Under the pieces are notes generated by a model. It did not search any database. It worked only from the letters and a program-made list of their open reading frames with translations, and was not told the DNA's origin. 64,000 nucleotides of DNA from a virus. This document shows positions 8,451 through 61,627 of this stretch, one piece after another. Made by a program: the position numbers and the translations under genes. Positions within the stretch are counted from its first letter, which is position 1. Each line of letters opens with the position of its first letter. The stretch spans positions 1-64,000 of IMG/VR virus record IMGVR_UViG_3300045988_178965. The stretch is one strand, 5' to 3'.

Positions 8451-8456
8451 GATAAA

Positions 8457-8476
8457 GGAGGGGTGATAACCCCTCC
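8457..8476 (+). promoter_or_regulatory. GC-rich stem-loop between the sheath and tube genes
   Basis: GGAGGGG-tgataa-CCCCTCC, a 7-bp perfect stem, 7 nt after the sheath stop. It is followed by aaattaaat, not a clean U-tract. It could be a partial terminator or an mRNA-stabilising hairpin setting sheath:tube stoichiometry. Confidence 0.4.
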
Positions 8477-8495
8477 AAATTAAATCAGGAATATT

Positions 8496-11569: not shown

Positions 11570-12051
11570 GAGTTGAAAAAATTGAAGGGTTAGAATCATT
11601 ACCACCAGATGATCTATCCCCTGACGAACACGAACAGTTGGCACAGGCCAAAGAAAGCGCTGAGGAAGAGCAAAAGGAACAGACGGATATTGATCTCCTT
11701 CTTAATGCTCTTTCTGATAAAGAAGATGCTCCAAAGGTTTATGATATTGAAGCATGGCTAGAAAAATACGGTACAATCCATGTATCATCAGTTCTAGGTG
11801 GTAAGGATATATTTATTTGGCGCGTATTAAGACGCCAGGAATATTCCAATATGATTAAACAGGGTATGATGGACAATGAGATTCGCGCAGAGGATTCTGT
11901 AGTTCGACGTTGCCTATTGTACCCAGAAGCAAAACAAGAGTTCCTAACCACTGCTCCTGCAGGTTTTATTTCTACATTAAAAGAGCAAATTATGTATCGC
12001 TCAGGATTCGTTCCACTGCAGCAAGCATATTCACAAATTAAGATCCTATAA
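11566..12051 (+). CDS. acidic small protein, putative tail assembly chaperone (by position)
   Basis: 161-aa ORF with an acidic N-terminus. One of two small genes immediately upstream of the tape-measure-like gene. ATGA overlap with the previous gene. Confidence 0.35.
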   Translation: MRVEKIEGLESLPPDDLSPDEHEQLAQAKESAEEEQKEQTDIDLLLNALSDKEDAPKVYDIEAWLEKYGTIHVSSVLGGKDIFIWRVLRRQEYSNMIKQGMMDNEIRAEDSVVRRCLLYPEAKQEFLTTAPAGFISTLKEQIMYRSGFVPLQQAYSQIKIL

Positions 12052-12581
12052 TGAGTGCATTAGATTTGAAGACGGGGACAGTCGTTATCCCCTTTAACAA
12101 CACCCCTATTCAAATCGAGGGGCGAATGTTTAAAAACCTATCAGTATTAGCTAGACTAATGTCTATGACTGAACTAGATAGGGCTATGCGCATTAACCTA
12201 GAAGATGCGGCAACCGAGGACGAATTATACGAAGAGATTTTTAAATCATGTGTAATAGATGTCCCCGGAATACCAAAAGGTGTAGACTACAATAATTCCT
12301 CAGCCGGATTTGTATCCACTGTTGGTAAAATTATTTTTATAAAGTCAAAAGAGTACGTGGAAGATCCATTCGGTGCATATGATAGAGCAGTAGAATCTGT
12401 ACCAATGGTAGAGGCAATGGCGGCCGTCATCTCTAGATTTCTAGGAATAAAATACACAGAAGCAAAATCTCTTCCTATTAATGACTTATTCGAAATGTAT
12501 GCGGCTTGTCACGTTGCATTTCCAAACGAAGTTGCTCCTATTGTTAAGCAAGAAGAAGAAAGAGGGGGTCCTCCAGTATGA
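12051..12581 (+). CDS. putative tail assembly chaperone (by position)
   Basis: 176-aa ORF with a TAATG overlap upstream and an ATGA overlap downstream. No slippery or frameshift signal recognised. Confidence 0.35.
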   Translation: MSALDLKTGTVVIPFNNTPIQIEGRMFKNLSVLARLMSMTELDRAMRINLEDAATEDELYEEIFKSCVIDVPGIPKGVDYNNSSAGFVSTVGKIIFIKSKEYVEDPFGAYDRAVESVPMVEAMAAVISRFLGIKYTEAKSLPINDLFEMYAACHVAFPNEVAPIVKQEEERGGPPV

Positions 12582-15500
12582 TAGCATCTAATTTAGGATG
12601 GTCCGCTATAAATGATTATAGGGATAGACAAGATAGCAGTATGGCTCATCGTAGAATACTGATGGACTCTCAGACTATCGAAGAAAATAAATCAGAACAG
12701 GAAGCCAGAGATATAGTCGGCTCTGTTATGAAATACGGGCTAACTCTTGAAGCTATAGTATTAGCCAATAAAGCTTTAAAAAACAAGGAAGTACAAAGAA
12801 AGGCTGAACGTTATGTAAAACTTAGCTATCTTGCTGACTCTATTAGGGGCACAAAGCAAGATGCTCTTAGCGTATTTGGCGGGGGGAAAGTTACCTTAGC
12901 AAACTTGTCTATGAACGTGGCAAGGGCGTTCGAGGAGCTTTCCCCTTTTTCTATTTTAAGAACATTTAATACTTCACATATATTGGCACCATTTGCAACA
13001 GCAGAATCTGAATTTGAATTCTCCTCTGACTTGTTAAAAGCGCAGAAAAGATACTTTAAATTTCTATCATCTAAATATGGTGAACGAGAATTAACGGATG
13101 CTGACTTTGAAGCCGGACTAAAATACTCTAAGGGCAAACTATTAGACGCGTCTGGCAATACGGTAATTCAAAATACAAGGTTAACACTAACTGAATTCGC
13201 CGGTACAGAGCCAGGACATACTGCTACATCAAATTATAATAAAATTCTACGCAGACATATAGCCGTAAATGAGGGTGCTTCATTTTTTGCGAAAAAAGAG
13301 ATTGGCGATCTTTCAAAAAGTGTTCCTGCTCATAATCCATTTACAATTATCGCAGCTGATAAAAATGCGAGTATAGGTAAGGAATGGATGAAGTCTGTTG
13401 TTGGACAAGCAGTAGCTCAAGGTTTCAATATGGTTAATGAGCCGCTTGGATTCTTAGAAGAGACTGGCGGTACATTAATAAATAGAGACTCCACCCTATT
13501 TAAGATGATTGGTAAATATGGGCGAATCAATCCCAATGCAACATCAGAATCAACAATCAAGGAATTAACAACTGGTTACGCAAAACACGGTATAGCAAAA
13601 ATGGCCGCTCTTGCGGCTGGCTATTATGCTTTAGACAATGCATCTAAGATAATAGGTACAGATAGCTCAGGATTTGGCCATGGCATATCAGAGGGATTGG
13701 CAACAACATTTCTTGGTGCTAAATTACTATATGCAGAAACAGTATCCGATAGATTCGAAGAGTATAGACAAGAGCAAGAATATGTTGCACCAGGCTCTAC
13801 CTCACTATTGAAATTAGCAGGTTTCCCTCTAGCCGGAGCAATGGCTGGCGGTACATTAGCATATGGTAGACGTACACTTCCTGCAGCAATTGCAAATGAT
13901 GGATACATTCGCTCAACAAGAGATGCCGCAAAAGAAAGCTTTATATTCGGACGAAGTGTAGCAACACTTGCAATTAATACGCCGGTCCAAGATGCATTAG
14001 CAGTCGGAACAAGAGCCAGAAGATTTGCAACAAGAGGCGCAGCAATAGGTGCATTATTTGCTTTACCATTCTTACCAGGTGCATTGATTGGCGAAAGTAG
14101 TGATGATATAAGGGCAGAATATCTTGAAGGAAAAGATGTAGCTATTCGTAAAAATAGAGGATGGTTCTCTTCTTCTACACCAATAGAAGGTGAAGGCGTA
14201 AAATACTTCACAAAAAACTGGTATCAAAGATTAATGGCCGACAATAAGGATAAAATCCTTTATGGTGACCAAGATACCAAAGAGGATTTAGATCCATTCC
14301 TTAGCCCATTCGACTACCTTAGAAATCCATACAGATTAGAAGAAATGCACCAAGAAGATATGCCATATCCTGTATGGGGCATGGACGTATCTATGGGTGG
14401 ATGGATTGGACGAGGTCTACAGATGGCATTTGGAGATGCTATCAAGCCGGACCTAATTAATCCAAGAATGAAAGCATTGACTGGAGAGTTACAAGGGTCT
14501 GGTGAGCCCGCAATAATCCCATCGCTATCAATAACCCAGAACGTTTCAAATAAACAAATGTCGCTTATAGGCGAGGGTAAAAGCACATATGGCGAACTCG
14601 CTAAGTATGACCCCAATACGGAGTCTGCGAACTATATCGTATCTTCCGGCCTAGACTTTATAGGTTTAAAAGGATGGGCAGCGTCTGGCGTTCTTAAAGA
14701 TTTTGGGTTAGGTATTCCGGAGTTAAAAACACAATATGCTCGATCAGGAGAAGCTACCAACGTAGCCAAAGAGTTTGAGGCACAGAACTTGGGTGGTATG
14801 CTTGGCGCAGCTGACGTAACAAGACGTATTATTCCGATGTCTGCCGATGTAACCGGAGAGCGATTCAATCCTTTGAGTAATACAGTCTCGCCAGAATGGT
14901 TGCCTAGTGGTGGTTACTTTAACGACTTTTCAAAGGGTGCATTTTGGGACAAAGTAGAAAACGGATACGATAGACTTCCCGGTAAGGGCTATGAAACATG
15001 GAATCCTGAACTATCTGGGGTTGATCCTAATGACTATCCTGATATACATAAATTCGAAATTTTATCAGATGTTGCATTTGGTAGTAATGAATACTACAAA
15101 ATGTATGAAAAGATGGAGGATTTATATAGGAGAAAAGTTGCTGGCGAAGAGACAGAAATGTCTGATGAGGATGCAGCAAGATTCGAAGAGATTTACATAC
15201 AGTCTCAGGAGCGTTCAAGAAAGAAAAGATTCTTCGAGTATAAAACAGAAGAAGAACTTGAAGGTGTTTCTATGTGGGGAAGAATGCTTGGCTCAATATG
15301 GGAAAGCACAACACATAATGCCGAGTTGTCAACCGAACGTTTAACATTCTTCCGTCCGGCCGGTAAGCTATTACATCAAAGGACAGCAATAGAGGACTAT
15401 GTAAAAACACAGCTATCAGAAGGTGACACTGCATTGTGGAATAAGCCATACGAACACTTTATAAGGCCGTTCGTAGAGGACTCATACAAATACATAGATT

Positions 15501-16348
15501 CTGAGCATGTTCCAGGATACATTCAAGAGCGTAGAAACGTTGACAATTATTTCGACGCACTTGAGTTCTACAAACAAATGCAAATCTATCGTAAGTCTGC
15601 TGGCGTAAATAACTACGAAGCTACAATGGCAAAAGAGAAAGCCAACAGGACAGTTTACGGTGCAGTTGCGTCAGGCCTTGATACAAGACAAGATGTAGAG
15701 TCTGCATATAGTGCACTATCAGATAATGAGAGGGCATACTTCTCATCATTTGTTAATGCAAAAGAATCGGACAGAAATAAGATATCAAGAATTGTTGACG
15801 GTAATAATATCTCTGATATGTACCGCATGTTGTGGGCTAGAAAAGACGCTATTGAAAACGGCGATGATATTTCTGCATTGATTCAGCAAGAAGAACAGGA
15901 TCTAATTGATAACAACCGGTCTGCATATTTAGCGTATAAAAATAGCAAAGACGCAGATATAGGAATCTCATTTAGAGAATACGTCCAAGAACTAAGAGCC
16001 GCATCTTTAATAGAAGAGGCAACAGGTATACCAACAGAAGATTTCTCTGGATGGGATCCGAGAATAGAAATTAAAGATGTAAAACTAAGGGCTCTTCAGT
16101 TGTCAAAAGAGGACGTTAGAGAATATGGATTCTGGCAGTCTGATGAAGACAATTTGGCTAGGCAATCATATCTTCTAAATGAAGATCAGGTAACAACACA
16201 ATTAGGCTCAATAAAAGAAACAAGAGCAAGACGAGAGTTTCAAGAATCACTATTAATAAAAGATCAGTTGATGAAAAGAGGAATATTTGCAAAAGATATC
16301 CGATTCTCAAACACTGGATTCAGTGATCAAAATATAAATATAGGTTAA
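12578..16348 (+). CDS. tape-measure-like protein (1256 aa)
   Basis: Large ORF after the two chaperone-position genes. Gly/Ala-rich hydrophobic stretches (e.g. KMAALAAGYYALDN, LAGFPLAGAMAGGTLAYG, RGAAIGALFALPFLPGALIG) and a long predicted-helical remainder, as is typical of tape measures. Confidence 0.5.
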   Translation: MIASNLGWSAINDYRDRQDSSMAHRRILMDSQTIEENKSEQEARDIVGSVMKYGLTLEAIVLANKALKNKEVQRKAERYVKLSYLADSIRGTKQDALSVFGGGKVTLANLSMNVARAFEELSPFSILRTFNTSHILAPFATAESEFEFSSDLLKAQKRYFKFLSSKYGERELTDADFEAGLKYSKGKLLDASGNTVIQNTRLTLTEFAGTEPGHTATSNYNKILRRHIAVNEGASFFAKKEIGDLSKSVPAHNPFTIIAADKNASIGKEWMKSVVGQAVAQGFNMVNEPLGFLEETGGTLINRDSTLFKMIGKYGRINPNATSESTIKELTTGYAKHGIAKMAALAAGYYALDNASKIIGTDSSGFGHGISEGLATTFLGAKLLYAETVSDRFEEYRQEQEYVAPGSTSLLKLAGFPLAGAMAGGTLAYGRRTLPAAIANDGYIRSTRDAAKESFIFGRSVATLAINTPVQDALAVGTRARRFATRGAAIGALFALPFLPGALIGESSDDIRAEYLEGKDVAIRKNRGWFSSSTPIEGEGVKYFTKNWYQRLMADNKDKILYGDQDTKEDLDPFLSPFDYLRNPYRLEEMHQEDMPYPVWGMDVSMGGWIGRGLQMAFGDAIKPDLINPRMKALTGELQGSGEPAIIPSLSITQNVSNKQMSLIGEGKSTYGELAKYDPNTESANYIVSSGLDFIGLKGWAASGVLKDFGLGIPELKTQYARSGEATNVAKEFEAQNLGGMLGAADVTRRIIPMSADVTGERFNPLSNTVSPEWLPSGGYFNDFSKGAFWDKVENGYDRLPGKGYETWNPELSGVDPNDYPDIHKFEILSDVAFGSNEYYKMYEKMEDLYRRKVAGEETEMSDEDAARFEEIYIQSQERSRKKRFFEYKTEEELEGVSMWGRMLGSIWESTTHNAELSTERLTFFRPAGKLLHQRTAIEDYVKTQLSEGDTALWNKPYEHFIRPFVEDSYKYIDSEHVPGYIQERRNVDNYFDALEFYKQMQIYRKSAGVNNYEATMAKEKANRTVYGAVASGLDTRQDVESAYSALSDNERAYFSSFVNAKESDRNKISRIVDGNNISDMYRMLWARKDAIENGDDISALIQQEEQDLIDNNRSAYLAYKNSKDADIGISFREYVQELRAASLIEEATGIPTEDFSGWDPRIEIKDVKLRALQLSKEDVREYGFWQSDEDNLARQSYLLNEDQVTTQLGSIKETRARREFQESLLIKDQLMKRGIFAKDIRFSNTGFSDQNINIG

Positions 16349-16351
16349 TAT

Positions 16352-19300
16352 ATGGCAATGAATAATCTAGTGCTCGGCGGTGCTACCGTCGGCTTTATGG
16401 CAGGTGACCCAATTGACAGTCCGATTTCATCCATCGCTGGCATTGGATTAGGAGCCTTGATTGGTTCTTCAATCGAAGTGGTTAAATCAAATAGAAGAGA
16501 GCGCCTACCTCGTGGTGCATCTGATATTAGAGTTGACCCAACCAAATTGAATAGTAGAGCAAACAGGGCATTAACAGAAGATGGCTATGCCGAAGAAATG
16601 CAACGGCAAGCTAAGCGTCATAATGCAATGACAAGATATTCTGGTAGAAGAAGTATTCGTGAGGTAACGGCAGAGGCTCAAAAGAACAGTGGCATTGTTA
16701 CAGAGTCTATGAGAACTGCCGCAGTTGAACGTGCAAACAGCTCTGTCTCTAAATGGGAAAGTGCCGTTTTGCACAACTTCAACTCTTTGTCTAATATGGA
16801 TTTATCAGAAACATTAGGTCAAAGTGGTGCAATGAAATTTATCCGCGGGGAATATGCCGCAGATGAATTATCAAACCTAGTTGCTAGTGGTAAGCTAACA
16901 GATGAGCACTTCAAAATGCTAAGACGTGCATCATCAAACGAAATGATTTCATCAGAAGTGAAGGCCGGAGAAATCAACTACTCTTCTAAATTAAGAACAG
17001 TAGATATGAGCTGGGTTCAGAACAAAGAAGTGCAGAATATAGGCTCTCTTTCAATTGACAGAACAGCCAGTAAGGAAGAGAAGATAAATGCACTTAAAGG
17101 TTATCTGTCTCAGACATTAGGCCATGATGATGCATTCGCCAATAGATTTGCACATAACATTAGTAATTTCTATCCTGGCGCCGCAATTGACATTTCAAAT
17201 TCCGACATCTCTATTAGAATGCCGAATGGTGAAGTAATTAAAGACCTTATCCCAGTGAGAAGGGACGGAGTATTACAATATGCGAAGAATGGTAATATAT
17301 ATGAAGGAAAGCTATATCAACCATTCATAGATTCTATTGGGGCATCTCTAGGCGGTATAGAATTAGCATCCCTATCATCAGACGGTAAGAGTATCGTTAT
17401 TAATTCCGCTATTACTAATAATGCTATAATAGACGGATTTACTAATCTTGAAGTTGCAGGATTCATGAATCATGTAGAGGGAACACCATACGGCAAAGCA
17501 CTAGAGAAAGTAAACAGTCTTGGTGCTTATGTTGGACCAGATGATGGAAGTAATCCAGTTAGGGATCCATCTCTTGATACAAGACTCCAATTCAGTCAGT
17601 CCGAAGATGGGAAAATAGTAAGAATAAAAGACGCAGGCTCTCTTGAGGATCAAAGAAGAATTGCCAATATATTTGAACGAGAGTTGATTAATCAGACAGG
17701 ATTATCAATAGCTCCATCGAATATTCGTTCAAGAACTTTCAATGTGCCAAGCGTCGACCAGGCCAAACGACCAGTAGGAGGAATAACGCCACATCCAGAA
17801 CGTCAAACAGGTGTAATACAAAGAAACACCGTTATCGATCTTGCAAATACAACGCACGAAGAGACAAGACGTATTGCCGGTGCTTCCAAATTACTAGTAG
17901 AGCAAGGGCTTGGTCATAATTTTAGCGGAGCAATTCTAGCATCTATCGCCGGACATGATAGCAACTTTAATCGTACTATTGGTAGCGCGATAATGGGTAT
18001 GGTACTAGAGGATGGTAAGACAGAACAGATGCTCAAAGGCATTCATCTAAATGCTCCAGGAACCGTTCGTCTTGGACAAGGTGCATTTACGGGTACAGAA
18101 GAACAAATTGCCAAGATGGGGCAAATCCAGAATGGCAATAGTATTTCCTATAAAGGCGGCGAAAGTATAGGTTTCTTCGGTGGCAAAGAATATGCCATTC
18201 CAAAGACAGTAGACTCGTTTACAGTTTCGAGAATAGAAAATACTAGAGATGGATACAAATTTATCGGCACTAATAATGTTATTACTGATACAGACTCAAA
18301 CTCTGGTATAAAAATCTTCAACGATGTCAAATCCACTTCTACGTATAGAACAGAGCGTGACTTTGCATTAAAGGAAATTATAGATAGATTTGAGAGAGAG
18401 GGTTCAATCTCAATGGAGAATGGATCTGTTGTAGTCTCATCAAAAAATACTGGAAACCTTGAAAGGCACAGTCAGCTACAGAAGGTTCTACCTGAAGGCC
18501 GTAGTAGATTCTCGCCAAAAGAGTTTAGGGGTGCTGTTGAAAAGTTTGTAGAGCAAAACGGCGCAGAACTAGATGTTGCATTGTCAAAAGTTAGAAATAC
18601 ATACAGAGACATCAACGTTCGTTCAGAAGACTTCAAAACAGGTTACACTCTTCAAGGCTTAGAAGTTAGCAACTTCAGAGATAAAGGCCAAATTAATAGA
18701 GCTAAAAATATAATCGGAGAAGTTATAACTAATAGCGGGTTAGATGTATCAGGTGAATTGCCAAAAGATGCTCCGCAGGCACTGAAGGATTTGCAACATT
18801 CATTCAGTAAACTATCAGAGGCTGGACTAGATTCAAACGAGGCAGGCAATGAAGCTAAACGAGCAAGGGCAAGTTTATTCGCAGCCAAATCCATCGAGGA
18901 CGCCAAATTCTCTAATATTGCATTGGGTACTATGTTAGGAAACCTGTCACAAGCCCACGATAAAGCACTTAACCGAGGAAAAACATTAACCTTAGATTTC
19001 GCACTGGGTGATGGCTCCACTGTCCCTATACAAATAGGCAAGGATAAAGATATTTCTTCTGCAATGGCCGAGTTTATTAAGGCATCAAGCAAACGTCAAA
19101 ACTTATACTCTTCAGGCAAGATTGGTTATGACCAAATGTATGGCGCAATTAAACATGACTATGGCAAACTAGAATCGCTGGGTGCCAATATGAGTCTATT
19201 TAACCTAGCCGGTTTACGTCCAGGTACAGCAGCACTTACAGGTGAATCAAGTCGTGGTCAGAAGATGTCTTGGATGGCTATGAGTAAATTTGATAATTTA

Positions 19301-21352
19301 ACAGATTCTCGTGAACTGAAAGATGCTCTGACAACATTAAATATGGATGCCATATATGAAGCAAAAGCTAGGGGCATGGAACTTGAGGCTGGGCATGAAT
19401 TCTCACATGTATTCGATGCAGACCAGAGAGAACGCGCCATTCAAATTGAAGATCTATTTAATAAGGACGAAACAAAACGTATCAAGGCCTTCGAAAGCGG
19501 TGGGTCTTTAAGCCATATAAAACCACAAGACGGAATCCTTAATATTAATCTTCCTGTTCCAAAAGGAATGAGCAAAGAATTCAAGGGCTATAAGTCTTTA
19601 TCTATACCAATACTAGATAGTAATATCAGCGGTTATGCAGAGCTTCCAAATGGCAAAGATGCCACAAAAGAAGCAACAAAGATAAGAAGAAATCTTCTAC
19701 TTACTTTATCCGATTATATGAACGCCAAAGGTGTTGGTGGTGTAGCAGAAGAGTTTGCCGCAACGGCTTACATGAATGCATTTAAAGAGTATAAGCAGTT
19801 TCAGAAACAAACAGGCTCCTCTCTTAAAAAAGCGGCAGCAGGTAGGAACTATAGAAATGCATCATACTCAACCGTTCAGCCTTTAAATGAAGCGCAACAA
19901 GCAGTATTTGATGCAGGAATGAATAAGGACAAAGTAAGGGTATTTATATCTGGAGAGGCTGCAGAAGAATACGGTCTTGATAAGAAGAGGTTCCAATATC
20001 AGGAAATTGGAGATAGTGGAATGTTTAGGGTTATAGACAAAGAAACGAAGCATCCTGTACAAGGTTTGTTCACTCGTGAACCTGCAACTGGCCCTAACTC
20101 TGTTCTTAGTACAGAGCTTGTCGTAGACAGAAATATGGGTAAAGGTATGGCTGTCGGGATGGATGCCAACATAATGAAGATCAACTCCGGCGACTTCGAC
20201 GATGATAAGGCCATATTGTCAGTTCTAGATACTAAGTCAAAAGACTTCTCAGAGCATAACAAAGAAATGGTCAGGATCATGAAGCGTCAGGCTGAAATGA
20301 TAAAAAGCCATAAGGCGGCAATAACAAAACTAACACCAAAATTAAATGAGGGTAGTAAAAAGTTTACCAACATTTCAGGTGTTAATGATGTTACACAAAA
20401 ACTTATCGAAAACATTATGTCTGGTAAAGAACGTGATATTGAGGCGCCAAGGGTAACCGCATACCATCAATTGGTAGAAGGCTCTCTAAAACGTGCCAAA
20501 GATGAAGAGATGAATCTGTTATCAAGATTAGAAATGGATGAAGCCGCAAGGAAAGCTGCTGTCGAGGAGATTAGGGCTAGATACTACATCGCCGATCAGG
20601 CTGCATACTTAATGCAAGAAAATACACTTAAATCTGTTCGTCTTGCAAATAAGGATGGAATATCGGCAAGCCTTATGGAGCAGATTGACGAGTTTATGTT
20701 AGAAAACCGTGGTAAACACGCAAACTACAATAAGCTCGGAGACATTATTGGCGACTTTATGGGTTCTTTATATCAGCATAGCAATGATGATATAGGGAAG
20801 TCTATCCAGGACGCAATCAATACTGTTAGGAAGTCTGTAGGTAAATATGGTGGAGAGGTGATAAGTGATGCCGCGGGTATGGTTGGTGGCAAAGGATTTG
20901 GCGCTAACCCAACTTCAGCGGCAGTAGCAGCAGCCGCCAGAAATAGTAAAGTAGGCCCTGAAGTATTGCCTTTTGAGCCGAATTCTAGTACCATTAATAA
21001 AATAGAAGACGGAGCTTATAGCGTCTTAGATACATTGAAACACAATAAGAACAAGCTTATTCTTGGGGCTGCAGGTTTGGCCGGACTGGCAATGATTAGC
21101 AGGTCGGAAACTCCAAATACAAGCTCACCAATGTATAACTCTCCAGTAGCAAGAACAAGTCCCGTACTCGAAGGCAGGACATCAGAAACCAGCTATATAA
21201 AAGACTGGGGCAATGATCCCAATTCAGTTACTATTAATGGACAAGTAATTAGTGGTATTTCTGACGCCAGAATTAAGCAAAACTTAAGGGGCTTAATACA
21301 GGGCGACACAAATCAAAGATCAACAGTAACATTTAACAATAGAAATTACTAA
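16352..21352 (+). CDS. giant tail-module protein with a two-barrel RNA polymerase-like signature (candidate virion RNAP)
   Basis: 1666-aa ORF. aa 1234-1294 read HPVQGLFTREPATGPNSVLSTELVVDRNMGKGMAVGMDANIMKINSGDFDDDKAILSVLDT, with DFDDD at nt 20192-20206. This parallels the beta-prime catalytic barrel NRAPTLH...[13 protein letters not shown]. aa 962-974 (LTGESSRGQKMSW) resemble the beta-barrel GRHGNKG/SRHGQKG motif. Hydrophobic Gly/Ala segments at both termini. The coding call is confident; the function call is motif-level only. Confidence 0.5.
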   Translation: MAMNNLVLGGATVGFMAGDPIDSPISSIAGIGLGALIGSSIEVVKSNRRERLPRGASDIRVDPTKLNSRANRALTEDGYAEEMQRQAKRHNAMTRYSGRRSIREVTAEAQKNSGIVTESMRTAAVERANSSVSKWESAVLHNFNSLSNMDLSETLGQSGAMKFIRGEYAADELSNLVASGKLTDEHFKMLRRASSNEMISSEVKAGEINYSSKLRTVDMSWVQNKEVQNIGSLSIDRTASKEEKINALKGYLSQTLGHDDAFANRFAHNISNFYPGAAIDISNSDISIRMPNGEVIKDLIPVRRDGVLQYAKNGNIYEGKLYQPFIDSIGASLGGIELASLSSDGKSIVINSAITNNAIIDGFTNLEVAGFMNHVEGTPYGKALEKVNSLGAYVGPDDGSNPVRDPSLDTRLQFSQSEDGKIVRIKDAGSLEDQRRIANIFERELINQTGLSIAPSNIRSRTFNVPSVDQAKRPVGGITPHPERQTGVIQRNTVIDLANTTHEETRRIAGASKLLVEQGLGHNFSGAILASIAGHDSNFNRTIGSAIMGMVLEDGKTEQMLKGIHLNAPGTVRLGQGAFTGTEEQIAKMGQIQNGNSISYKGGESIGFFGGKEYAIPKTVDSFTVSRIENTRDGYKFIGTNNVITDTDSNSGIKIFNDVKSTSTYRTERDFALKEIIDRFEREGSISMENGSVVVSSKNTGNLERHSQLQKVLPEGRSRFSPKEFRGAVEKFVEQNGAELDVALSKVRNTYRDINVRSEDFKTGYTLQGLEVSNFRDKGQINRAKNIIGEVITNSGLDVSGELPKDAPQALKDLQHSFSKLSEAGLDSNEAGNEAKRARASLFAAKSIEDAKFSNIALGTMLGNLSQAHDKALNRGKTLTLDFALGDGSTVPIQIGKDKDISSAMAEFIKASSKRQNLYSSGKIGYDQMYGAIKHDYGKLESLGANMSLFNLAGLRPGTAALTGESSRGQKMSWMAMSKFDNLTDSRELKDALTTLNMDAIYEAKARGMELEAGHEFSHVFDADQRERAIQIEDLFNKDETKRIKAFESGGSLSHIKPQDGILNINLPVPKGMSKEFKGYKSLSIPILDSNISGYAELPNGKDATKEATKIRRNLLLTLSDYMNAKGVGGVAEEFAATAYMNAFKEYKQFQKQTGSSLKKAAAGRNYRNASYSTVQPLNEAQQAVFDAGMNKDKVRVFISGEAAEEYGLDKKRFQYQEIGDSGMFRVIDKETKHPVQGLFTREPATGPNSVLSTELVVDRNMGKGMAVGMDANIMKINSGDFDDDKAILSVLDTKSKDFSEHNKEMVRIMKRQAEMIKSHKAAITKLTPKLNEGSKKFTNISGVNDVTQKLIENIMSGKERDIEAPRVTAYHQLVEGSLKRAKDEEMNLLSRLEMDEAARKAAVEEIRARYYIADQAAYLMQENTLKSVRLANKDGISASLMEQIDEFMLENRGKHANYNKLGDIIGDFMGSLYQHSNDDIGKSIQDAINTVRKSVGKYGGEVISDAAGMVGGKGFGANPTSAAVAAAARNSKVGPEVLPFEPNSSTINKIEDGAYSVLDTLKHNKNKLILGAAGLAGLAMISRSETPNTSSPMYNSPVARTSPVLEGRTSETSYIKDWGNDPNSVTINGQVISGISDARIKQNLRGLIQGDTNQRSTVTFNNRNY

Positions 21353-21361
21353 GAGAAGAAT

Positions 21362-24300
21362 ATGGCAAGATTTACTTTTTCTATCAACGGAATGCTAGAT
21401 TTAGAACCGATCTCATTCGATAAGGTTGATAAATTTTATACAACCCAACACGAATTCCTAAGAGATACCTCGGTTCTATCTTCTAAATCCAGATATAGCG
21501 AGATGCTTCATCTTGCCACATTCGCATTTGATGTTTCAGATGCAAAAGAGGTAGAGAAGCTTAAAACCCTGATAGCTATCTGTAATTCATTTCCATACGT
21601 ATTTATCAGATCAGATGCAATTATTGAAAACCATCTGATGCCTTTAAATCTAGCCATAGGTTCTGGGTACTATATGTATGCACTGCATGAATTCCAGGCA
21701 GAAATGTCATCGACAGATGCAGACCAGGGCGTAGTTACCGTATCCTTAAGATTGCAGATGGTTAACTGGAAGCCGCTGGCTAAAAGTATCAAATTTATCT
21801 CTATTGAAGAGGGCGCAGAGGTTAAAACTAAATCAGGAAAAGTTAGGAATATCTCTGAATATAATGGAGAAGAGGGTGACAGCGTAGTATCTACCGGAAG
21901 CTATGTTAAGTATGTTGACAATCCAGAAGAGTCAAACATTCTTAACTTTATGGTTGAAAAGAACCTTAGCGATGACATTGAAGCTATCCTTAATTCTGGA
22001 CTAAGCCGCTCATTTGAGTTTAATCTTGGATGGCCTCTAGTTATGACAGACTTACAGTTTGATGGAAGATCAAAATCAGATTTCTGCTGGAATCTTGTTA
22101 GACAATTTAGGGTATTAAAAACTGTAGACCTAGACGGATCATTGCAGACAAAAGACGGCAAGAAAACATCACAATCAAACATCTCCGAAGTAACAGAGGA
22201 AAATGTAGAGCGTTATGATGAAACCGGAAGAATTTGGGTTGGCTACGTCAGAGAAAGACTGGCTGGAACAAATGTCAAAGATGGAGACGTAGCGTTGCAG
22301 TCTATAACTGTAAGACGCAGAAATAGATTTGCAAATCAAACGGTTCAAGGGTTTGTATATCCATATGCACAATATTTAGGCCGCTCACCATCAGAAGTTT
22401 TAATTACAACAGCAGTTAATCATACAAAAGGTATGGCATCAACAACGGCTATGCAAGCAGTAAAAAAAGCCGATGAGATGACCAACTATGTCAGAGTCTC
22501 AACACCTGCATTGAAAGGACTTGATGTTCTAGCCATAGAGAATCCATTAGTAAATGGTCTCGGTATTAAATATGCAGTTCTAGACTCATCTCATGCAACC
22601 ACTTCTGGTTCACTAAATAATCTTTTAATAAACAACTTTACATTTATAGAGTCTGACTCTTATGGTGCAATAGAATCCAGCAGGTATGCTCTGGCATCAT
22701 CCGTTAATGGATGGAATGATTCAGCAAATAAAGCACAACGTCTTATTGAAGTTATAGGACAATACAAGGCTCTTAAAAAAGACGGCTCTAGCACATCAGA
22801 ATACGACACTATTATCTCTGTTATCAATAACCGCTTAATTGATGCGTTAAATAGGACAGCTAAGTCTGAATTTCCAGAAGCCAAATCTTTGCAAGAATCC
22901 GATGTTTTCAAAAAGGCAGATGCAACACAAAAATCTGTATATATAATTCAACTATATATGCAGCTAATCTCAGCAAATACCGCATCAGGCTCTGAAGAAA
23001 GAATAACGTTAGAGCGTGTAAGACTACTGGACTCAGAAATAGAATCGCTGTATTTTGAGACCATTACAAACCTTAATCCAATAACAATCAAGGCGCTAAA
23101 AGAAGACCTTCAAAAAGAGAAGAATTGGATTGAAAAGATGGAGGGAAACTATACATCGTTTAACGGTGAAGGTATTCCTGACCTAAAAATAAAAGAAATA
23201 TTTGGAGGTTTAACTCCTACAAAAGAGTATAAAAGCTGGAGAGATTTATCGTCATTCCCATTTATATATGACCAAGGAATTCTTTCTCCAGATAAAGTAG
23301 TAGCGTTTTGGGATGAAAAACTTCCCGAGATTAATAGTCTGCTCGAGGCCACTGGCGCGTTGATAAAAACTGACCTTAATATTTATACTACTGCTCCGGC
23401 CATGAATGACGCTGGTGGTAACTCAACCACTGGTGCATCTGTTATGGTTCAAGATCCTTCTGGCGGAACATCGCCAAAAGGAAAAGCCGATGTGAAATTA
23501 GTCTATACCCGAGAACAATATGAGCGCGATTATAAAGTGAGCACCGGGTCTAATAAAAGACTCTTGCCACTTGAAAACATAGTTGCCTATACAAGACTAG
23601 GTAGAGACTTGCAAAACTTCGGTGGAAGGCATATGGGTTTAGATATGCCAGTACCGGTAGGAACTCCTGTACGTGTTGCCGACGATGGTGTTGTATCAGT
23701 AGCCAAATTTCAGATGAATAAAAATGGTAAGCGCGGATACGGTAACGTAATATACGTTAAGCATGCAAATGGTATTGAAACCAGATATGCCCACTTAAGC
23801 AGAATTCTTGTAAGAGAGGGTTCTCGTGTCGGAAGAGGTCAGGTTATTGGTCTATCAGGTAATACTGGTGGGTCTACAGGTCCGCACTTACATTACGAAA
23901 TAAGAATAAATGGCAAGGTAATTAGCCCTAAAGCATACTATGGTAAAACCACGAATGGTCCAACATCAATAGCAACATCTAGCAAGACGAATTCCTCTTA
24001 TTCTGCTGCAGCATATGCAAGAGGCGGCTCAAAGGCACGCTCAGGCATTATGACCTTAAAAGAGTTTATTGCAGCAGGAGAGAGCGGCGGAAGTTATGAT
24101 ATTGCCAACTGGTATACCGGTAGGAAATTAAATTCTGGCAATAAGGGGTTATCAAACAAGACGATTGCCCAAGTTATGGCTATGCAAAATGCAGGTCAGC
24201 TTCATGCTGTAGGTAAATACCAAACGATACCTGTAACATTAAGGGCTGCTGTACAAGGACTTCGCCTAAATGGTAATACTCCGTTCTCTCCATCAGTGCA

Positions 24301-27256
24301 GGAAAAAATCGGCACATGGCTAATTTTCAATAAACGCCCAGCGCTTGGTGCATACATTAGAGGTGAAAGCAACGATTTAGACAAGGCTCACAAAGAGTTT
24401 GCATTGGAATGGAGATCAATTCCTATGCCTGATGGACGTTCTGCAAGTTCAAGCGGCGATAAAGTTCATTCCGGATATACTCCAGAAAGAGTTAGACAAG
24501 CCTTACTCGCAGCAAGAGCTTCATACGTTAAATCATTGTCTAGTGGCAAATCCAAAGAGCAGGCACAAGAAGAGGCTGTTGCGTCAACAGCTTTAGCAAG
24601 AGTTGCTTCCGGTGAGAATGTATCAGATGTTGCAAATAGCTATATCAACGAGCTATACGCAGGAAGAGAAAAAGATCCTATTGAGGCAGTTGTAGACCCA
24701 GTACCATGGACAGAAGAAATCCAGGCTAAATCTAGACTAGAGAATTTCGTCAAGGATCTTAATAGGGGTATTCAAAAATTAATACCGACATATAAGGTTT
24801 ACATGGTTCACGGTAATGACGAAAATAGTTTAATTAATTTAATCAATTATCGTCAACATGCATCATACTATGAAGTTCCTGCAGTTAGAAATATTAGAGT
24901 TGAAATGGCAAATCAGGATAACCCAGTTGCCGTTGCAACATTCGAAGTATTAAACGCTCTGAATACAGCATCTGACCCTAAAGAAATCAGAACATTAAAG
25001 TCTGAGAATATAGATATACGCTCTCTAAATTCTGACGCTGCTAGAATAGTTGCGATGGACCAAATTAGACTTAAAGCTGGTAACAAGATTCAGATTAGAA
25101 TGGGTTATGGAAACGACCCAAATAAACTATCCGTTGTATTCAACGGCATAGTAACAGAGTCTGACGGCGGCGAAGTTCTAACAATCGTTGCAGAGGGTTA
25201 TGGTAGAGAATTACAAAACGAGCAACTCTTCATTGGAGACGTAGTTCCAACATTCTCATTCCTATCAGATATCGATAACCTATATATATCCGCAGCCGTT
25301 GCCAAAGTTCTTAAATCTGCTAATCTAGATAGTTTCGGCAGAAACCCTAGATGGTTTGCAGACAATAATGACTTTAGAGACGTAAGAGGTATGAGCAATG
25401 AAACAGCGGCATCAACTCTTGTCGGTGATAGTGGCATAGGATTTAGTAATTCTCTTTGGAACTCCCAACTAGACGAATACTTCTTCTACTCTGCTAAAGG
25501 TGCAACAGAAAGTCTGGAAAACTTCTGGTTAATGAACGTAGATATGGCAGACAGGTTCTTCGTGACAAGTCTAAAAGATCTATTCCCATTTTCGTTGAAT
25601 GACTTCTTCTCAAACTTTAATGTCGTCAATAAGACTGTTTGGGACGTTCTAACAACAGGAAGAAGAATGTTTCCTTCATCTATTCTTCTTGTTAAGAATA
25701 TAGAGGGACGTTCAACAACCTTCTCTGGCATTAAAGAGCAAATGATGATAGGCAAAGAAAAGCCAACATCATTAGCCGCAGAGTTTTTATCAAAAATACA
25801 GAAGAAAGCTGATTTCAAGAAAGAAGCAAACGAGGCACTTGCAGGAGACACAACTGGCATTGGTAATTCATATGTAGAAAATAATATGAAAGACAAAATC
25901 AATGTCATAGGCGAGCAGACATTAAAATCTAATGGCTCAGATGTAATAGACCTATTGGATGCCGCAAATGCGGATAAATACGTGGATGTTTCATCATATG
26001 TTCCGGCAACCAATTTCCATATGTTTAACAGTTCTTATAATCTGATTTCTAATCAATTGAAATTAGATCAAAACTGCATAACAGGTGCTAAAGTTGAATA
26101 TAACGGCGATCCAGAGGATTTTGGATACGGAGAAAATATATTCGATATGAAGGCAAATGGTGGGCTAAAGGGTTCACTCGCTAAATTTGGATATATCAAT
26201 GACAACTCTATTAGCTCTGTAGGAATGGCAATTAAAACTGCTCAAGGTTATCTATTAGAAGAATTAGAGAAAATGTATAACGGTGCAGTTATTGTCACTG
26301 GAAATCCAGATATACAACCTGGTGATTATGCATTTATCCAAGATGATCTTAGAAATATGTCTGGCGTAATTAAATGTCGTGAAGTTCAACATGTATTTAC
26401 AGAGTATGATGGCTATGTGACAATTATTACACCAGGTATGTTTGTAGAACCATCAACACATATGTATTCAAATCTATACATGAAACTTGGCATATTCATG
26501 AATTTTGTGTCTACAGCAGCATCAGAGTATGCTCAGGTATCCAGTGCAGAAACAATTCCTGGACTTATCTATGAACAAACCGCATTCCAGCCTACTGATC
26601 TTGGTGCATCTGTGTATCTGCTTGGAGTTGGTAACGTTGCCGTTGGTGGACTGACAGGCGCATTCGTATATAGCTCTGCTAGTCGTATAGCTGGTGGTTC
26701 TTTAATAAGTAGAGCATCAAGTGGTTTAAGTCTTGCTGCTAGGGCCGGAAAAGCTGTCGCTGGTGCTGGTTGGGTTCGCTCTTTGGCACACACAGCAATG
26801 GCATTCGGTTCTTCGGTTGGGTCTAAAACACTACAGGCGCTACCAAGAGTTGCAAGAGTAATCTCAGCAGTACGTGGAGTTGTAGCCGGTGGTAGGGCAG
26901 TAGCAACAGCCGCTATGGGATTTGCAGCTGGTGGGTTTATTGCAACAGCAGCGGTCTCAGCACTTTTGGTAGTTTTAGTTTATGGTGCATTGGCAATGGT
27001 TCAGAATTTAATTGAATCATATGCACTCAAACTTGAAATGAGACACAGGGCACTTATGAAGTTTCCAGTAAAAGTATATGGACAAGAATATACGGCTGGT
27101 CTCATAGGATGGAATGATACAGAGACACCATTAGGATTGCAGATAGAGACAGTAAAAGAAACTATTAGGGCTTTAGGCGACATCAACGAGGCTACAACTA
27201 GGGCCGGATATGATGGTTCCCCATATGCCTTATACTTTAAATTAGCTACGGATTAA
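21362..27256 (+). CDS. multidomain tail hub/lysin protein (1964 aa): M23 peptidase, lysozyme/transglycosylase-like domain, hub-like region and hydrophobic C-terminus
   Basis: M23 motifs: GGRHMGLD (H757) ... YGNVIYVKHANGIETRYAHL ... GPHLHYEI (H842/H844), nt ~23564-23941. Next, AAGESGGSYD...AVGKYQTIP (nt ~24044-24490), resembling E-S...G-x-Y-Q peptidoglycan glycosidase domains of tail proteins. Later, IRLKAGNKIQIRMGYGN...FNGIVTE and VTGNPDIQPGDYAFIQD resemble gpD/gp27-type hub proteins. Gly/Ala-rich transmembrane-like segments lie near the C-terminus. Confidence 0.7.
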   Translation: MARFTFSINGMLDLEPISFDKVDKFYTTQHEFLRDTSVLSSKSRYSEMLHLATFAFDVSDAKEVEKLKTLIAICNSFPYVFIRSDAIIENHLMPLNLAIGSGYYMYALHEFQAEMSSTDADQGVVTVSLRLQMVNWKPLAKSIKFISIEEGAEVKTKSGKVRNISEYNGEEGDSVVSTGSYVKYVDNPEESNILNFMVEKNLSDDIEAILNSGLSRSFEFNLGWPLVMTDLQFDGRSKSDFCWNLVRQFRVLKTVDLDGSLQTKDGKKTSQSNISEVTEENVERYDETGRIWVGYVRERLAGTNVKDGDVALQSITVRRRNRFANQTVQGFVYPYAQYLGRSPSEVLITTAVNHTKGMASTTAMQAVKKADEMTNYVRVSTPALKGLDVLAIENPLVNGLGIKYAVLDSSHATTSGSLNNLLINNFTFIESDSYGAIESSRYALASSVNGWNDSANKAQRLIEVIGQYKALKKDGSSTSEYDTIISVINNRLIDALNRTAKSEFPEAKSLQESDVFKKADATQKSVYIIQLYMQLISANTASGSEERITLERVRLLDSEIESLYFETITNLNPITIKALKEDLQKEKNWIEKMEGNYTSFNGEGIPDLKIKEIFGGLTPTKEYKSWRDLSSFPFIYDQGILSPDKVVAFWDEKLPEINSLLEATGALIKTDLNIYTTAPAMNDAGGNSTTGASVMVQDPSGGTSPKGKADVKLVYTREQYERDYKVSTGSNKRLLPLENIVAYTRLGRDLQNFGGRHMGLDMPVPVGTPVRVADDGVVSVAKFQMNKNGKRGYGNVIYVKHANGIETRYAHLSRILVREGSRVGRGQVIGLSGNTGGSTGPHLHYEIRINGKVISPKAYYGKTTNGPTSIATSSKTNSSYSAAAYARGGSKARSGIMTLKEFIAAGESGGSYDIANWYTGRKLNSGNKGLSNKTIAQVMAMQNAGQLHAVGKYQTIPVTLRAAVQGLRLNGNTPFSPSVQEKIGTWLIFNKRPALGAYIRGESNDLDKAHKEFALEWRSIPMPDGRSASSSGDKVHSGYTPERVRQALLAARASYVKSLSSGKSKEQAQEEAVASTALARVASGENVSDVANSYINELYAGREKDPIEAVVDPVPWTEEIQAKSRLENFVKDLNRGIQKLIPTYKVYMVHGNDENSLINLINYRQHASYYEVPAVRNIRVEMANQDNPVAVATFEVLNALNTASDPKEIRTLKSENIDIRSLNSDAARIVAMDQIRLKAGNKIQIRMGYGNDPNKLSVVFNGIVTESDGGEVLTIVAEGYGRELQNEQLFIGDVVPTFSFLSDIDNLYISAAVAKVLKSANLDSFGRNPRWFADNNDFRDVRGMSNETAASTLVGDSGIGFSNSLWNSQLDEYFFYSAKGATESLENFWLMNVDMADRFFVTSLKDLFPFSLNDFFSNFNVVNKTVWDVLTTGRRMFPSSILLVKNIEGRSTTFSGIKEQMMIGKEKPTSLAAEFLSKIQKKADFKKEANEALAGDTTGIGNSYVENNMKDKINVIGEQTLKSNGSDVIDLLDAANADKYVDVSSYVPATNFHMFNSSYNLISNQLKLDQNCITGAKVEYNGDPEDFGYGENIFDMKANGGLKGSLAKFGYINDNSISSVGMAIKTAQGYLLEELEKMYNGAVIVTGNPDIQPGDYAFIQDDLRNMSGVIKCREVQHVFTEYDGYVTIITPGMFVEPSTHMYSNLYMKLGIFMNFVSTAASEYAQVSSAETIPGLIYEQTAFQPTDLGASVYLLGVGNVAVGGLTGAFVYSSASRIAGGSLISRASSGLSLAARAGKAVAGAGWVRSLAHTAMAFGSSVGSKTLQALPRVARVISAVRGVVAGGRAVATAAMGFAAGGFIATAAVSALLVVLVYGALAMVQNLIESYALKLEMRHRALMKFPVKVYGQEYTAGLIGWNDTETPLGLQIETVKETIRALGDINEATTRAGYDGSPYALYFKLATD

Positions 27257-52861: not shown

Positions 52862-52870
52862 TCAAAACAA

Positions 52871-52909
52871 AACCCCGGCACCAATTAAGGTGTCGGGGTT
52901 ATTTTTATT
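52871..52909. terminator. bidirectional rho-independent terminator between convergent gene blocks
   Basis: AACCCCGGCACC-aattaa-GGTGTCGGGGTT, a 12-bp stem with one G-U. Followed by ATTTTTATT on the plus strand and preceded by the complement of TTGTTTTG for the minus strand. Confidence 0.75.
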
Positions 52910-53618: not shown

Positions 53619-53643
53619 AGACTTTTTCCTAATAATGTAGGGA

Positions 53644-61405: not shown

Positions 61406-61610
61406 ATTAATTATTCCTTTTGTAATTATTGTAATAGGAACATCTGAAATTGCATTTCGCAATTAAAGGACGGTTTGCAAAAACCGTTGCATCCTGCAGG
61501 CGCCGGCCGCGGGATGCATGAATTCACCTCATTCTTAAATTTGGAACAAATTTAAGAATTGATGTATCACGAACCTCGATTCGTATAGTAAAAACAATAT
61601 TGTCAAAGAT

Positions 61611-61627
61611 CGGAAGGAATTCTTCCG
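61611..61627. repeat. CGGAAG-N5-CTTCCG hairpin repeat, copy 1
   Basis: gtcaaagatCGGAAGgaattCTTCCG. The conserved 5' flank (caaaga/caagg) is shared with copies 2 and 3. Confidence 0.8.

Follow-up and report, generated by a model that had tools for sequence, protein, structure and literature searches.

Introduction

Single-chain two-barrel RNA polymerases (RNAPs) of bacteriophages have a central place in thinking about where the eukaryotic RNAi polymerases came from and about the extent to which the universal RNAP core tolerates remodelling; every further family that is too diverged for sequence searches is an extra branch. One such enzyme, gp96 of the Thermus siphovirus P23-45, is a virion RNAP fused to the tape measure, which is active in vitro and which Western blotting has detected in virions (Chaban et al. 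2024, PMC10770324). In phi14:2, which is a crAss-like phage, g066 belongs to a 'gene expression module' along with g065 and g067, and not to a tail operon (Drobysheva et al., bioRxiv 10.1101/2020.03.07.982082). The β and β′ homologs of phiKZ/AR9-like jumbo myophages are divided among several subunits (PMC7598289), and YonO-like non-virion enzymes exist in 0305phi8-36 (PMC7824862), a phage related to those considered here.

Here we analyse a giant tail-module protein with a two-barrel RNAP-like core that is encoded in a 64-kb stretch of viral DNA (the window). A preliminary description had proposed it as a candidate injected virion RNAP of a contractile-tailed phage and had been aware of no such enzyme in a sheath/tube tail module. 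The premise of novelty was overstated, since a two-barrel virion RNAP that forms part of a tail protein, P23-45 gp96, has already been published (PMC10770324).

Results

The ORF (16352..21352, + strand) starts with ATG and encodes 1666 aa, exactly as originally placed. It belongs to a rare, previously unannotated family of about 30 clusters, whose members are 1560-2040 aa long and share identity down to ~15%. Membership was assigned to 15 plus 14 proteins and, in addition, to protein P0030, with homology over the full length. The distant members came from an exhaustive HMMER scan, and word-indexed searches with alignments gave almost no extra homologs. The alignment of 23 sequences, with identity down to ~15%, has 1061 columns, of which only 14 show no variation. 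R484, R491, K654, K660, K1160, R1242, P1244, D1281, D1283, D1285, T1369, E1423 and K1427 are invariant at this depth.

The sole cultured member of the family is gp36 of Acinetobacter phage vB_AbaM_ME3 (AND75197.1, 'hypothetical protein'). It is only ~15% identical to the window protein but clearly belongs to the family (hhalign over 1279 columns, probability 100%, E 5.5e-65; hmmsearch E 9e-142), and it keeps R-E-P-A-Q-G...G-G-D-H-D-Q-D and whose gene neighbourhood is identical in arrangement to that of the window ORF. Neither the genome announcement (PMC5000817) nor other literature that we found mentions gp36 as a polymerase. Searches of the 1666-aa protein and of the family alignment against Pfam, PHROG, NCBIfam and PDB sequences and profiles gave no RNAP match, and glycine-zipper models were the sole matches. 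The window protein had no tblastn match in 50,697 phage records; with ME3 gp36 as the query, ME3 itself was the only match.

The catalytic, β′-like barrel (DPBB-A) is placed by the invariant motif, the structure model and Foldseek at aa ~1214-1291 (19991..20224, +). It contains R1242-E-P1244 (20075-20083, +) and D1281-F-D-D-D1285 (20192-20206, +), and the preliminary description had read this region as a catalytic-barrel motif, with DFDDD at these same positions. The reading is borne out by the homologs: none of the 23 sequences departs from R1242, P1244 or the three Asp residues (D1281, D1283, D1285), so that R1242-x-P1244...D1281-x-D1283-x-D1285 supplies 5 of the 14 invariant columns. The published filter for two-barrel enzymes, [RK]xPx{20,100}DxDxD (PMC10770324 Supp. 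Data 4), is satisfied by R1242-E-P1244, followed after 36 residues by D1281-F-D-D-D1285. The filter also matches one other ORF of the window, which encodes a collagen-repeat protein; we regard that match as chance. The Asp motif of the window protein, DFDDD, differs from the canonical DFDGD. The proposed role of the R1242-x-P...D1281-x-D-x-D barrel is Mg2+ binding.

Profile alignment with known enzymes converges on the same residues. With E. coli β′, the top and only hhalign match sets DxDxD on NADFDGD (E 0.11), and with P23-45 gp96 the top and only match, 21 columns long, sets it on DFDGD (E 0.098). Both matches are below significance, yet both fall on the catalytic motif.

An AlphaFold model of aa 440-1500, built on an MSA of 23 sequences, has a pLDDT of 83.6 and a pTM of 0.78 and shows a compact mixed α/β multidomain fold. 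(A model of aa 860-1480, for which just 8 sequences, most of them close, were used, was discarded; its pLDDT was 50 and its range excluded the likely second barrel.) Around the motif the model has a strand, the R-x-P loop, two further strands, a helix, DxDxD and a strand, and by our own comparison this is the same order of elements as in the E. coli β′ sequence around NADFDGD. In a Foldseek search of the PDB all of the top 50 matches were RNAP largest subunits, including bacterial β′, Pol II Rpb1, AR9 nvRNAP and ASFV RPB1 (best E 4e-4; probability 0.77-1.00, nearly all >=0.9), although the same kind of protein recurs many times among them, which means that they do not amount to 50 independent confirmations. 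E-values are modest throughout (1e-4 to 1e-2), and TM-scores are low (0.1-0.3), meaning that the similarity is local and not global. The BFVD search gave nucleocytoviral and poxviral RPB1, nudivirus LEF-9 and a phiKZ-like β′, as well as crAss-like giant proteins over >1100 columns (E 5e-3 to 9e-2) and a few uncharacterised look-alikes, of which one is named 'minor tail protein' and one is from Microcystis phage MaMV-DC. The structural comparison that had been suggested at the outset thus found the catalytic region to be like β′/Rpb1 (Foldseek best E 4e-4, probability 1.0).

The second, β-like barrel had been assigned in the preliminary description to LTGESSRGQKMSW, which indeed lies at aa 962-974 (19235..19273, +). 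This assignment did not hold. The SSRGQK within it is kept only in relatives of at least 63% identity, and even these have SSHNQK, SSNGQK and SNKGQK as variants; in distant members it is absent or gapped, and only the following S973-W974 is conserved. The model has no barrel strands at this place, and aa 960-964 (model residues 521-525) have a pLDDT <50. We therefore dropped SSRGQK as the second-barrel motif: it is a poorly conserved stretch, not a conserved catalytic motif, and lies in the connector between the putative barrels, partly in a low-confidence loop.

A better candidate for DPBB-B, one that is not proven, is the β-rich domain that DSSP finds in the model at aa ~527-695 (17930..18436, +). 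It contains the motif K654-I-F-N-D-V-K660-S (18311-18334, +), whose two lysines, K654 and K660, do not vary among the 23 sequences. The family consensus, h-K-h-F-G-x-x-K-S, resembles the x-K-G β4 motif of DPBB-B in gp96, gp64, QDE-1 and β. hhalign comparisons with E. coli β, gp64 and isolated DPBB-B regions, including that of gp96, gave no signal.

Other elements expected of a two-barrel core may be recognized by their order. An Arg-bearing duplex-binding helix precedes DPBB-B in gp96, gp64 and β (PMC10770324 Supp. Fig. 8), and by position alone aa 481-496 (P-E-R484...R491; 17792..17839, +), which precede the β-rich domain, could be its analogue. R484 and R491 are invariant, and the model shows coil at these residues (pLDDT 58-78). 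Downstream of the catalytic barrel, the model contains a long helix at aa 1347-1392 (model residues 908-953; 20390..20527, +), a candidate bridge helix judged by order and position, which carries the conserved R-K-x-x-A-P-x-x-T1369 with an invariant T1369. It is followed at aa 1397-1451 (20540..20704, +) by a helix (model residues 958-989), a flexible loop (residues 991-999 at pLDDT <50) and a second helix (residues 1002-1012). This segment includes E1423-N-x-L-K1427-S, with E1423 and K1427 invariant; E1423-N-x-L-K1427 is similar to V-D-x-x-K, the trigger-loop motif found in gp96, gp64, QDE-1 and gp66, and from this likeness and the order of elements we infer a candidate trigger loop.

Outside the core, the protein had been described as having Gly/Ala-rich hydrophobic segments at both ends. 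The N-terminal one, at aa 5-44 (16364..16483, +), is a putative glycine-zipper-type membrane helix: a hydropathy scan flagged aa 25-44, G10, G14 and G34 are invariant in the family, and four family members match the Pfam model Rick_17kDa_Anti (glycine zipper 2TM). The C-terminal one, at aa 1568-1583 (21053..21100, +), is conserved but falls below the hydropathy threshold; the family keeps the block K-L-x-x-G-x-A-G-L-A-A, and a conserved tail continues beyond it to aa 1666.

The gene lies in a tail module. That the tail is contractile is shown by a tail sheath gene at 6195..8450 (+; phrog_16991 tail sheath, E 1e-64), whose product is 38% identical to the ME3 sheath. Two small ORFs of 161 and 176 aa (11566..12581, +) occupy the tail-assembly-chaperone position and match ME3_33/34 and 0305phi8-36 gp143/144 ('tail chaperonin') in position and size; the locus L005 shows the same arrangement. 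It is a 1256-aa ORF (12578..16348, +), not the 1666-aa ORF, that comes directly after them. This upstream conserved partner is a tail-module protein homologous to ME3 gp35 (ME3_35; 31% identical across 1210 aa, E 0, blastp), with partial homology to 0305phi8-36 gp145 (E 1e-13, blastp). Downstream, a 1964-aa hub-like protein (21362..27256, +) is a homolog of ME3 gp37, annotated as 'baseplate hub'. It has an M23 peptidase domain at aa 756-856 (23627-23929, +; Pfam PF01551, E 5e-30), 43% identical to P23-45 gp96 residues 3153-3249, and C-terminal hydrophobic helices, with hydrophobic segments at aa 1747-1887.

The 1666-aa ORF thus lies, as previously noted, between the 1256-aa ORF and the M23-bearing 1964-aa ORF, downstream of the sheath gene, and stop codons at 16348, 21352 and 27256 show that the three giant ORFs are separate. 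The complete order of sheath, tube, chaperones, ~1260-aa protein, 1666-aa homolog and hub is found in the window, ME3 and L005; in the short contigs L006 and L011 just the large flanking ORFs are visible, in the same order. Except for one member at E 0.1, the 1666-aa family has no tape-measure match in PHROG or Pfam. Both 0305phi8-36 gp145 and gp146 are annotated as virion proteins (mass spectrometry), and both were rejected as family members; gp146 is the positional counterpart of the 1666-aa protein, yet it has no detectable homology to it and no DxDxD.

In ME3 we found no second gene with the two-barrel signature at record positions 4,262-234,900, the scan starting after the first 4.2 kb, and DxDxD is also absent from three large ORFs without annotation, ME3_274, ME3_284 and ME3_309. 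In the 64-kb window, scans for Rfam families and tRNAs found nothing.

Discussion

From the above results, the 1666-aa protein is very probably related to cellular RNA polymerases, as a single chain that has diverged strongly from them. The central claim of the preliminary description, a two-barrel RNAP relative in a contractile-tail module, is supported by the invariant motif, the model and the Foldseek matches. An RNAP relative encoded among tail genes suggests that the tail may serve to bring a transcription enzyme of the phage's own into the cell. On balance we favour the reading that the protein is a member of the single-chain two-barrel superfamily, represents a new, very diverged family of ME3-like large myophages and acts as a tail-delivered early RNAP.

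It is rather unlikely, in our judgement, that the protein is a structural tail protein (a tape measure or an internal/ejection protein) whose polymerase-like fold has been exapted, is an inactive relic or performs another nucleotidyl transfer. As in QDE-1 or PolD, this transfer could serve RNA-dependent RNA synthesis, priming or DNA synthesis; RdRPs and PolD are within the two-barrel superfamily. The position of the 1666-aa protein is that of 0305phi8-36 gp146, a 'hypothetical tape measure protein', the best BFVD matches outside the family include the one named 'minor tail protein', and any of the three giant ORFs might be the one that measures the tail. However, the Asp triad, R-x-P, the two lysines and E-N-x-L-K are strictly invariant over very deep divergence, and such invariance of the metal-binding triad and motifs argues for retained catalysis. 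Moreover, DNA-dependent RNAP subunits rank first in Foldseek, and the aa 440-1500 model is compact and multidomain, unlike the long helical rod that tape measures usually form. Fold evidence carries no information on where the protein is located, and a genuine two-barrel homolog might instead be a non-virion RNAP, like YonO or P23-45 gp64, that happens to be encoded in a late structural operon; as mentioned, 0305phi8-36 has YonO-like enzymes. We find this improbable: a late-only enzyme could not start early transcription unless packaged, the gene always sits tightly between those for the gp145-like protein and the hub, just a few nucleotides from each, the hydrophobic segments at the N- and C-termini are conserved, as in tape-measure and ejection proteins, and members of 1560-2040 aa are far above the size of non-virion single-chain RNAPs (616 aa for P23-45 gp64).

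Least probable of all, and very much so, is that there is no true RNAP relationship, in which case a conserved tail protein would contain DxDxD by chance and the matches from Foldseek would be spurious. The exact signature of the superfamily takes up five of the 14 invariant columns, two independent structure libraries (PDB and BFVD) both yield RNAP largest subunits, the secondary-structure order around DxDxD matches that of β′, and the two independent hhalign top matches, to gp96 and to β′, are both on the catalytic motif. These points have to be set against the non-significance of every sequence-based comparison with known RNAPs, Foldseek E-values of only 1e-4 to 1e-2 with low TM-scores, and the small MSA behind the model, just 23 sequences.

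If the protein is indeed a two-barrel polymerase, it would be laid out as a glycine-zipper helix, ~440 aa of unassigned fold, the R484/R491 duplex-binding segment and the K654/K660 β-like barrel, followed by a connector of ~500 aa, the catalytic barrel, the bridge helix, the trigger loop, the hydrophobic segment and the conserved tail. The gene would be expressed late, together with the tail genes, and the protein would be built into the tail, in the lumen or hub region, beside the neighbouring giant proteins. Contraction of the sheath could then expel it into the envelope and cytoplasm, where its terminal hydrophobic segments may anchor it at the site of DNA entry and the first genes of the incoming DNA would be transcribed independently of the host RNA polymerase, as for P23-45 gp96. 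Since a folded protein of 1666 aa does not fit through a tail tube, it would have to be unfolded or extended for delivery. Given that in the scanned part of the ME3 record it is the only gene with the two-barrel signature, the host RNAP would take over the later gene classes. Tentatively, then, ME3-like myophages may carry a membrane-anchored single-chain RNAP in the contractile tail as their sole polymerase of this type, fired by the sheath to transcribe the entering genome and possibly to help draw it in.

To our knowledge, a comparable tail-delivered RNAP has so far been known from only one phage, with a non-contractile tail. If the proposal is true, tail-delivered transcription extends from P23-45 to a different injection machine, the contractile tail, which raises the mechanical question of how a 180-kDa enzyme travels through, or sits in, the tail tube. 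Together with gp96 and the BFVD look-alikes, it would also mean that tail-delivered RNAPs are recurrent and evolved independently across tail types, and the tree of two-barrel polymerases would gain another deep branch. In any case, a giant 'hypothetical protein' gains a candidate function, and as ME3 gp36 comes from a cultured, tractable phage, the hypothesis is directly testable.

Among the known systems, phiKZ/AR9-like phages are also large and contractile-tailed and have a two-barrel RNAP for early transcription. Their virion RNAPs show clear sequence similarity to cellular RNAP, and the genes lie outside the tail module; in contrast to their several subunits, the window phage has one chain without such similarity, encoded in the tail operon. 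The crAss-like gp66 (phi14:2), which is virion-associated, is similar in build: both it and the window protein are giant single polypeptides, with a β-like barrel (only a candidate in the window protein) followed by a β′-like one, both have a non-canonical Asp motif (DFDID in gp66, DFDDD here), and most of each protein lacks recognisable homologs. However, gp66 comes from podoviruses and the window protein from a contractile-tailed phage, and the connector between the putative barrels is ~500 aa long here versus ~140 aa in gp66 and QDE-1.

The closest parallel is P23-45 gp96, even though homology of the window protein to it was not detected outside the motif (hhalign; blastp gave nothing significant). 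RNAP, tape measure, membrane domains and M23 peptidase are not fused in a single polypeptide here, as they are in gp96: the window protein is the product of a separate 1666-aa gene with its catalytic core in the middle and C-terminal part (aa ~480-1450) and the M23 domain in the next gene, whereas the core of gp96 is the N-terminus of a 5002-aa tape measure that itself includes the M23 domain. The tail is contractile in one case and of the siphovirus type in the other, and ME3 is without a second RNAP in the scanned region, whereas P23-45 has gp64. Yet the two proteins share [RK]xP...DxDxD within a single-chain core that is, very probably in the window protein too, of the two-barrel RNAP type, and both are encoded in a tail module. 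They also share a link to membrane segments and an M23 peptidase, sequences in which only the catalytic motif detectably resembles other RNAPs, and the same proposed role, transcription of the first genes during DNA entry.

Results

A giant protein in the core of a contractile-tail module

The 1666-aa ORF (16352-21352, + strand, ATG start) is part of a long, rightward structural operon. Upstream of it lie the tail sheath gene (6195-8450; phrog_16991, E 1e-64), two tube-like genes (8496-9200 and 9231-10631), a pair of small ORFs occupying the tail chaperone position and a 1256-aa ORF (12578-16348). The next gene downstream encodes a 1964-aa protein with a Peptidase_M23 domain, and baseplate-like genes come after it. 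The gene thus belongs to the core of the tail module of a contractile-tailed phage.

The protein had no match in Pfam, PHROGs, NCBIfam or PDB sequence searches, and tblastn against 50,697 phage records returned nothing. A word-indexed search recovered 14 close relatives at 63-100% identity, their contigs being ~173-188 kb long, plus one protein at 26%. Scanning 1.84 billion representatives exhaustively with HMMER, using a profile built on aa 860-1480, added 14 further proteins, all of 1560-2040 aa and with the profile match at the same relative position, and one more came from an additional search. Family members are homologous end to end, with the Gly-rich hydrophobic helix at the N-terminus and the hydrophobic segment and tail at the C-terminus included. 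The family is rare (~30 clusters in ~15 billion proteins), and a literature search found no paper identifying it as a polymerase.

Conservation of the catalytic motif

The preliminary description had read DFDDD (aa 1281-1285, nt 20192-20206, + strand), together with an upstream R-x-P, as the catalytic motif of a beta-prime-like double-psi beta-barrel (DPBB-A), and LTGESSRGQKMSW (aa 962-974, nt 19235-19273, + strand), containing SSRGQK, as a second-barrel motif resembling that of the beta subunit (DPBB-B); both positions were exact on recheck. In an alignment of 23 sequences, down to ~15% identity, 14 of 1061 columns are invariant: R484, R491, G555, K654, K660, K1160, R1242, P1244, D1281, D1283, D1285, T1369, E1423 and K1427. 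Five of them make up R-x-P-(36)-D-x-D-x-D, which is exactly the signature, [RK]xPx{20,100}DxDxD, used by Chaban et al. as a filter for two-barrel RNAPs (PMC10770324). Distant members carry the variants DLDGD, DFDGD, DYDGD, DADGD and DHDQD, the three aspartates being retained throughout. Elsewhere in the window the filter pattern occurs in one collagen-repeat protein only. SSRGQK is variable in close relatives and gapped in distant ones, with only S973-W974 kept, and it maps to the connector, in part to a loop whose pLDDT is <50; its assignment to the second barrel was wrong.

Structural similarity to RNA polymerases

With 8 sequences, aa 860-1480 gave a poor first model (pLDDT 50); with 23 diverse sequences, aa 440-1500 were modelled confidently (pLDDT 83.6, pTM 0.78). 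In a Foldseek search of the PDB with this AlphaFold model the best 50 matches were all RNAP largest subunits (best E 4e-4, probabilities 0.77-1.0). These matches all represent a single protein type and are not independent confirmations. In BFVD the homolog from Acinetobacter phage vB_AbaM_ME3 ranked first (E 1e-15), followed by three uncharacterised proteins (E 9e-8 to 1e-4); lower matches included RPB1-type subunits from giant viruses and poxviruses, LEF-9 of a nudivirus and a phiKZ-like beta-prime, and giant crAss-like proteins over >1100 aligned columns. RNAP-type subunits were returned from both databases, with TM-scores so low (0.1-0.3) that the similarity is local. Around the catalytic motif the model runs strand, R-E-P loop, strand, strand, helix, G-D-F-D-D-D, strand, which in our comparison with the E. 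coli beta-prime sequence equals the order of elements around NADFDGD. The single top hhalign matches to E. coli beta-prime (E 0.11) and to P23-45 gp96 (E 0.098), each non-significant alone, agree in falling on the catalytic motif, where DxDxD is aligned with NADFDGD and DFDGD, respectively.

The three uncharacterised proteins, which are the best BFVD matches outside the family, are A0A8S5SD80 (from Siphoviridae sp. ctnpt50, named 'Minor tail protein'; E 9e-8, 1185 columns), A0A7R7G2L5 and A0A075BUT7 (uncharacterised, Microcystis phage MaMV-DC). They may represent further unrecognised RNAP-like families, possibly tail-associated.

Putative second barrel, bridge helix and trigger loop

Upstream of SSRGQK, a beta-rich domain (aa 527-695) carries the family-wide h-K654-h-F-G-x-x-K660-S, and the invariant R484 and R491 stand ahead of it. 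Published structure-based alignments (Chaban et al., PMC10770324, Supp. Fig. 8) show that in gp96 and gp64 DPBB-B follows a duplex-binding helix bearing an Arg, and that strand beta4 of DPBB-B has x-K-G in gp96, gp64, QDE-1, beta and PolD. This domain is probably the second barrel, and a better candidate than SSRGQK; hhalign against E. coli beta and the gp96 DPBB-B found no match to this barrel. The catalytic barrel is followed in the model by a helix of 46 residues (aa 1347-1392) and then by a helix, flexible loop and helix (aa 1397-1451) with an invariant E-N-x-L-K, reminiscent of the published bridge helix and V-D-x-x-K trigger-loop motif. We infer the order duplex-binding segment, barrel B, connector, barrel A, bridge helix and trigger loop, which is the canonical single-chain order.

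A cultured member of the family

The window sheath is 38% identical to that of the Acinetobacter jumbo phage ME3, and the sheath of Bacillus phage 0305phi8-36 is a more distant relative. ME3 gene order matches the window: sheath, tube, tube paralog, chaperonins, gp35 (1263 aa), gp36 (1603 aa, 'hypothetical') and gp37 ('baseplate hub'). The neighbourhood also recurs at the loci of three distant metagenomic members. On sequence grounds ME3 gp36 is a true member of the family (hhalign probability 100%, E 5.5e-65; hmmsearch E 9e-142), with the motif R-E-P-A-Q-G...G-G-D-H-D-Q-D. Scanned for the signature between 4.2 and 234.9 kb, ME3 gave no candidate other than gp36, and the ME3 genome announcement does not mention an RNA polymerase (PMC5000817).

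In 0305phi8-36 the same slot is filled by gp146, which carries the annotation 'hypothetical tape measure protein' and was identified in virions by mass spectrometry; it shows no detectable homology, lacks DxDxD and was rejected as a homolog. That phage encodes a YonO-like RNAP elsewhere in its genome (PMC7824862).

Additional features

ME3_243 (ME3 record 187426-187638; 41203-41415 of the ME3 locus L013) is small and carries the annotation 'baculo_LEF5_C superfamily'. LEF-5 is a zinc-ribbon factor resembling TFIIS, of the kind acting on two-barrel RNAPs.

In the window, the tube paralog (9231-10631) is extended at its C-terminus, where aa 334-416 weakly match an endonuclease family (phrog_452, E 0.0096), and its counterpart in a distant relative (L005, 2997-4469) has a Pfam SNase domain (PF00565), which suggests the fusion of a nuclease domain to a tube-like protein. 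The 1256-aa protein had no match in PHROG, NCBIfam or PDB sequence searches; in Pfam, its aa 1038-1120 gave a weak, below-cut-off match to the nucleotidyltransferase PF21655 (L544_NTransf, E 0.023). A nucleotidyltransferase adjoining an RNAP-like gene would, if true, be interesting. A 1350-aa tail protein (33296-37348) contains a bactofilin-like domain (PF04519, E 2e-8), and two mutually adjacent ORFs, 44575-45489 and 45529-46845, with collagen triple-helix repeats, probably encode fibres. Short GC-rich hairpins with flanking T/A runs, after the sheath gene (8451-8495, GGAGGGGTGATAACCCCTCC) and between the convergent ORFs 52334-52861 (+) and 52905-53714 (-) (52862-52904, CCCCGGCACCAATTAAGGTGTCGGGG), look like intrinsic terminators. 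In the region 59843-62270 (- strand), the ribonucleotide reductase small-chain ORF is unusually long (539 aa), with its Pfam match in two stretches. It adjoins an 808-bp non-coding stretch (61463-62270) with GC-rich palindromic runs in a genome of 38% GC, where Rfam and tRNA scans found no family and no tRNA; the region may be an intron or homing-element remnant.

Discussion

The polymerase signature noticed in this tail-module protein is real. The protein very likely belongs to the two-barrel fold, its catalytic barrel being well supported, and its family is a new, deeply diverged polymerase family. Injection from the virion is plausible from gene context and precedent, and we regard the full statement, a two-barrel polymerase delivered by the virion, as somewhat favoured. 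Since ME3 gp36 offers a cultured representative, the hypothesis is directly testable.

Functionally, the nearest precedent is gp96 of P23-45, a tape measure of 5002 aa that has a clampless two-barrel RNAP as its N-terminal 1200 aa. This protein was detected by Western blot in virions, and it transcribes the pre-early genes (PMC10770324). Given this precedent, our protein is not a new category. Like gp96, it has a tail-module location, hydrophobic segments and an M23 domain close by, that of the next, 1964-aa gene product being 43% identical to gp96 residues 3153-3249; unlike gp96, it is encoded by a separate gene in a contractile-tailed lineage and shares no detectable sequence homology. The three consecutive giant ORFs at 12578-27256 (1256, 1666 and 1964 aa; 4886 aa in total) jointly hold what gp96 fuses in a single protein, namely the RNAP-like core, hydrophobic segments and M23 peptidase. 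The single-chain two-barrel plan is common to crAss-like gp66 and QDE-1, which, however, come from podoviruses and eukaryotes. The phiKZ-type virion RNAPs are multisubunit.
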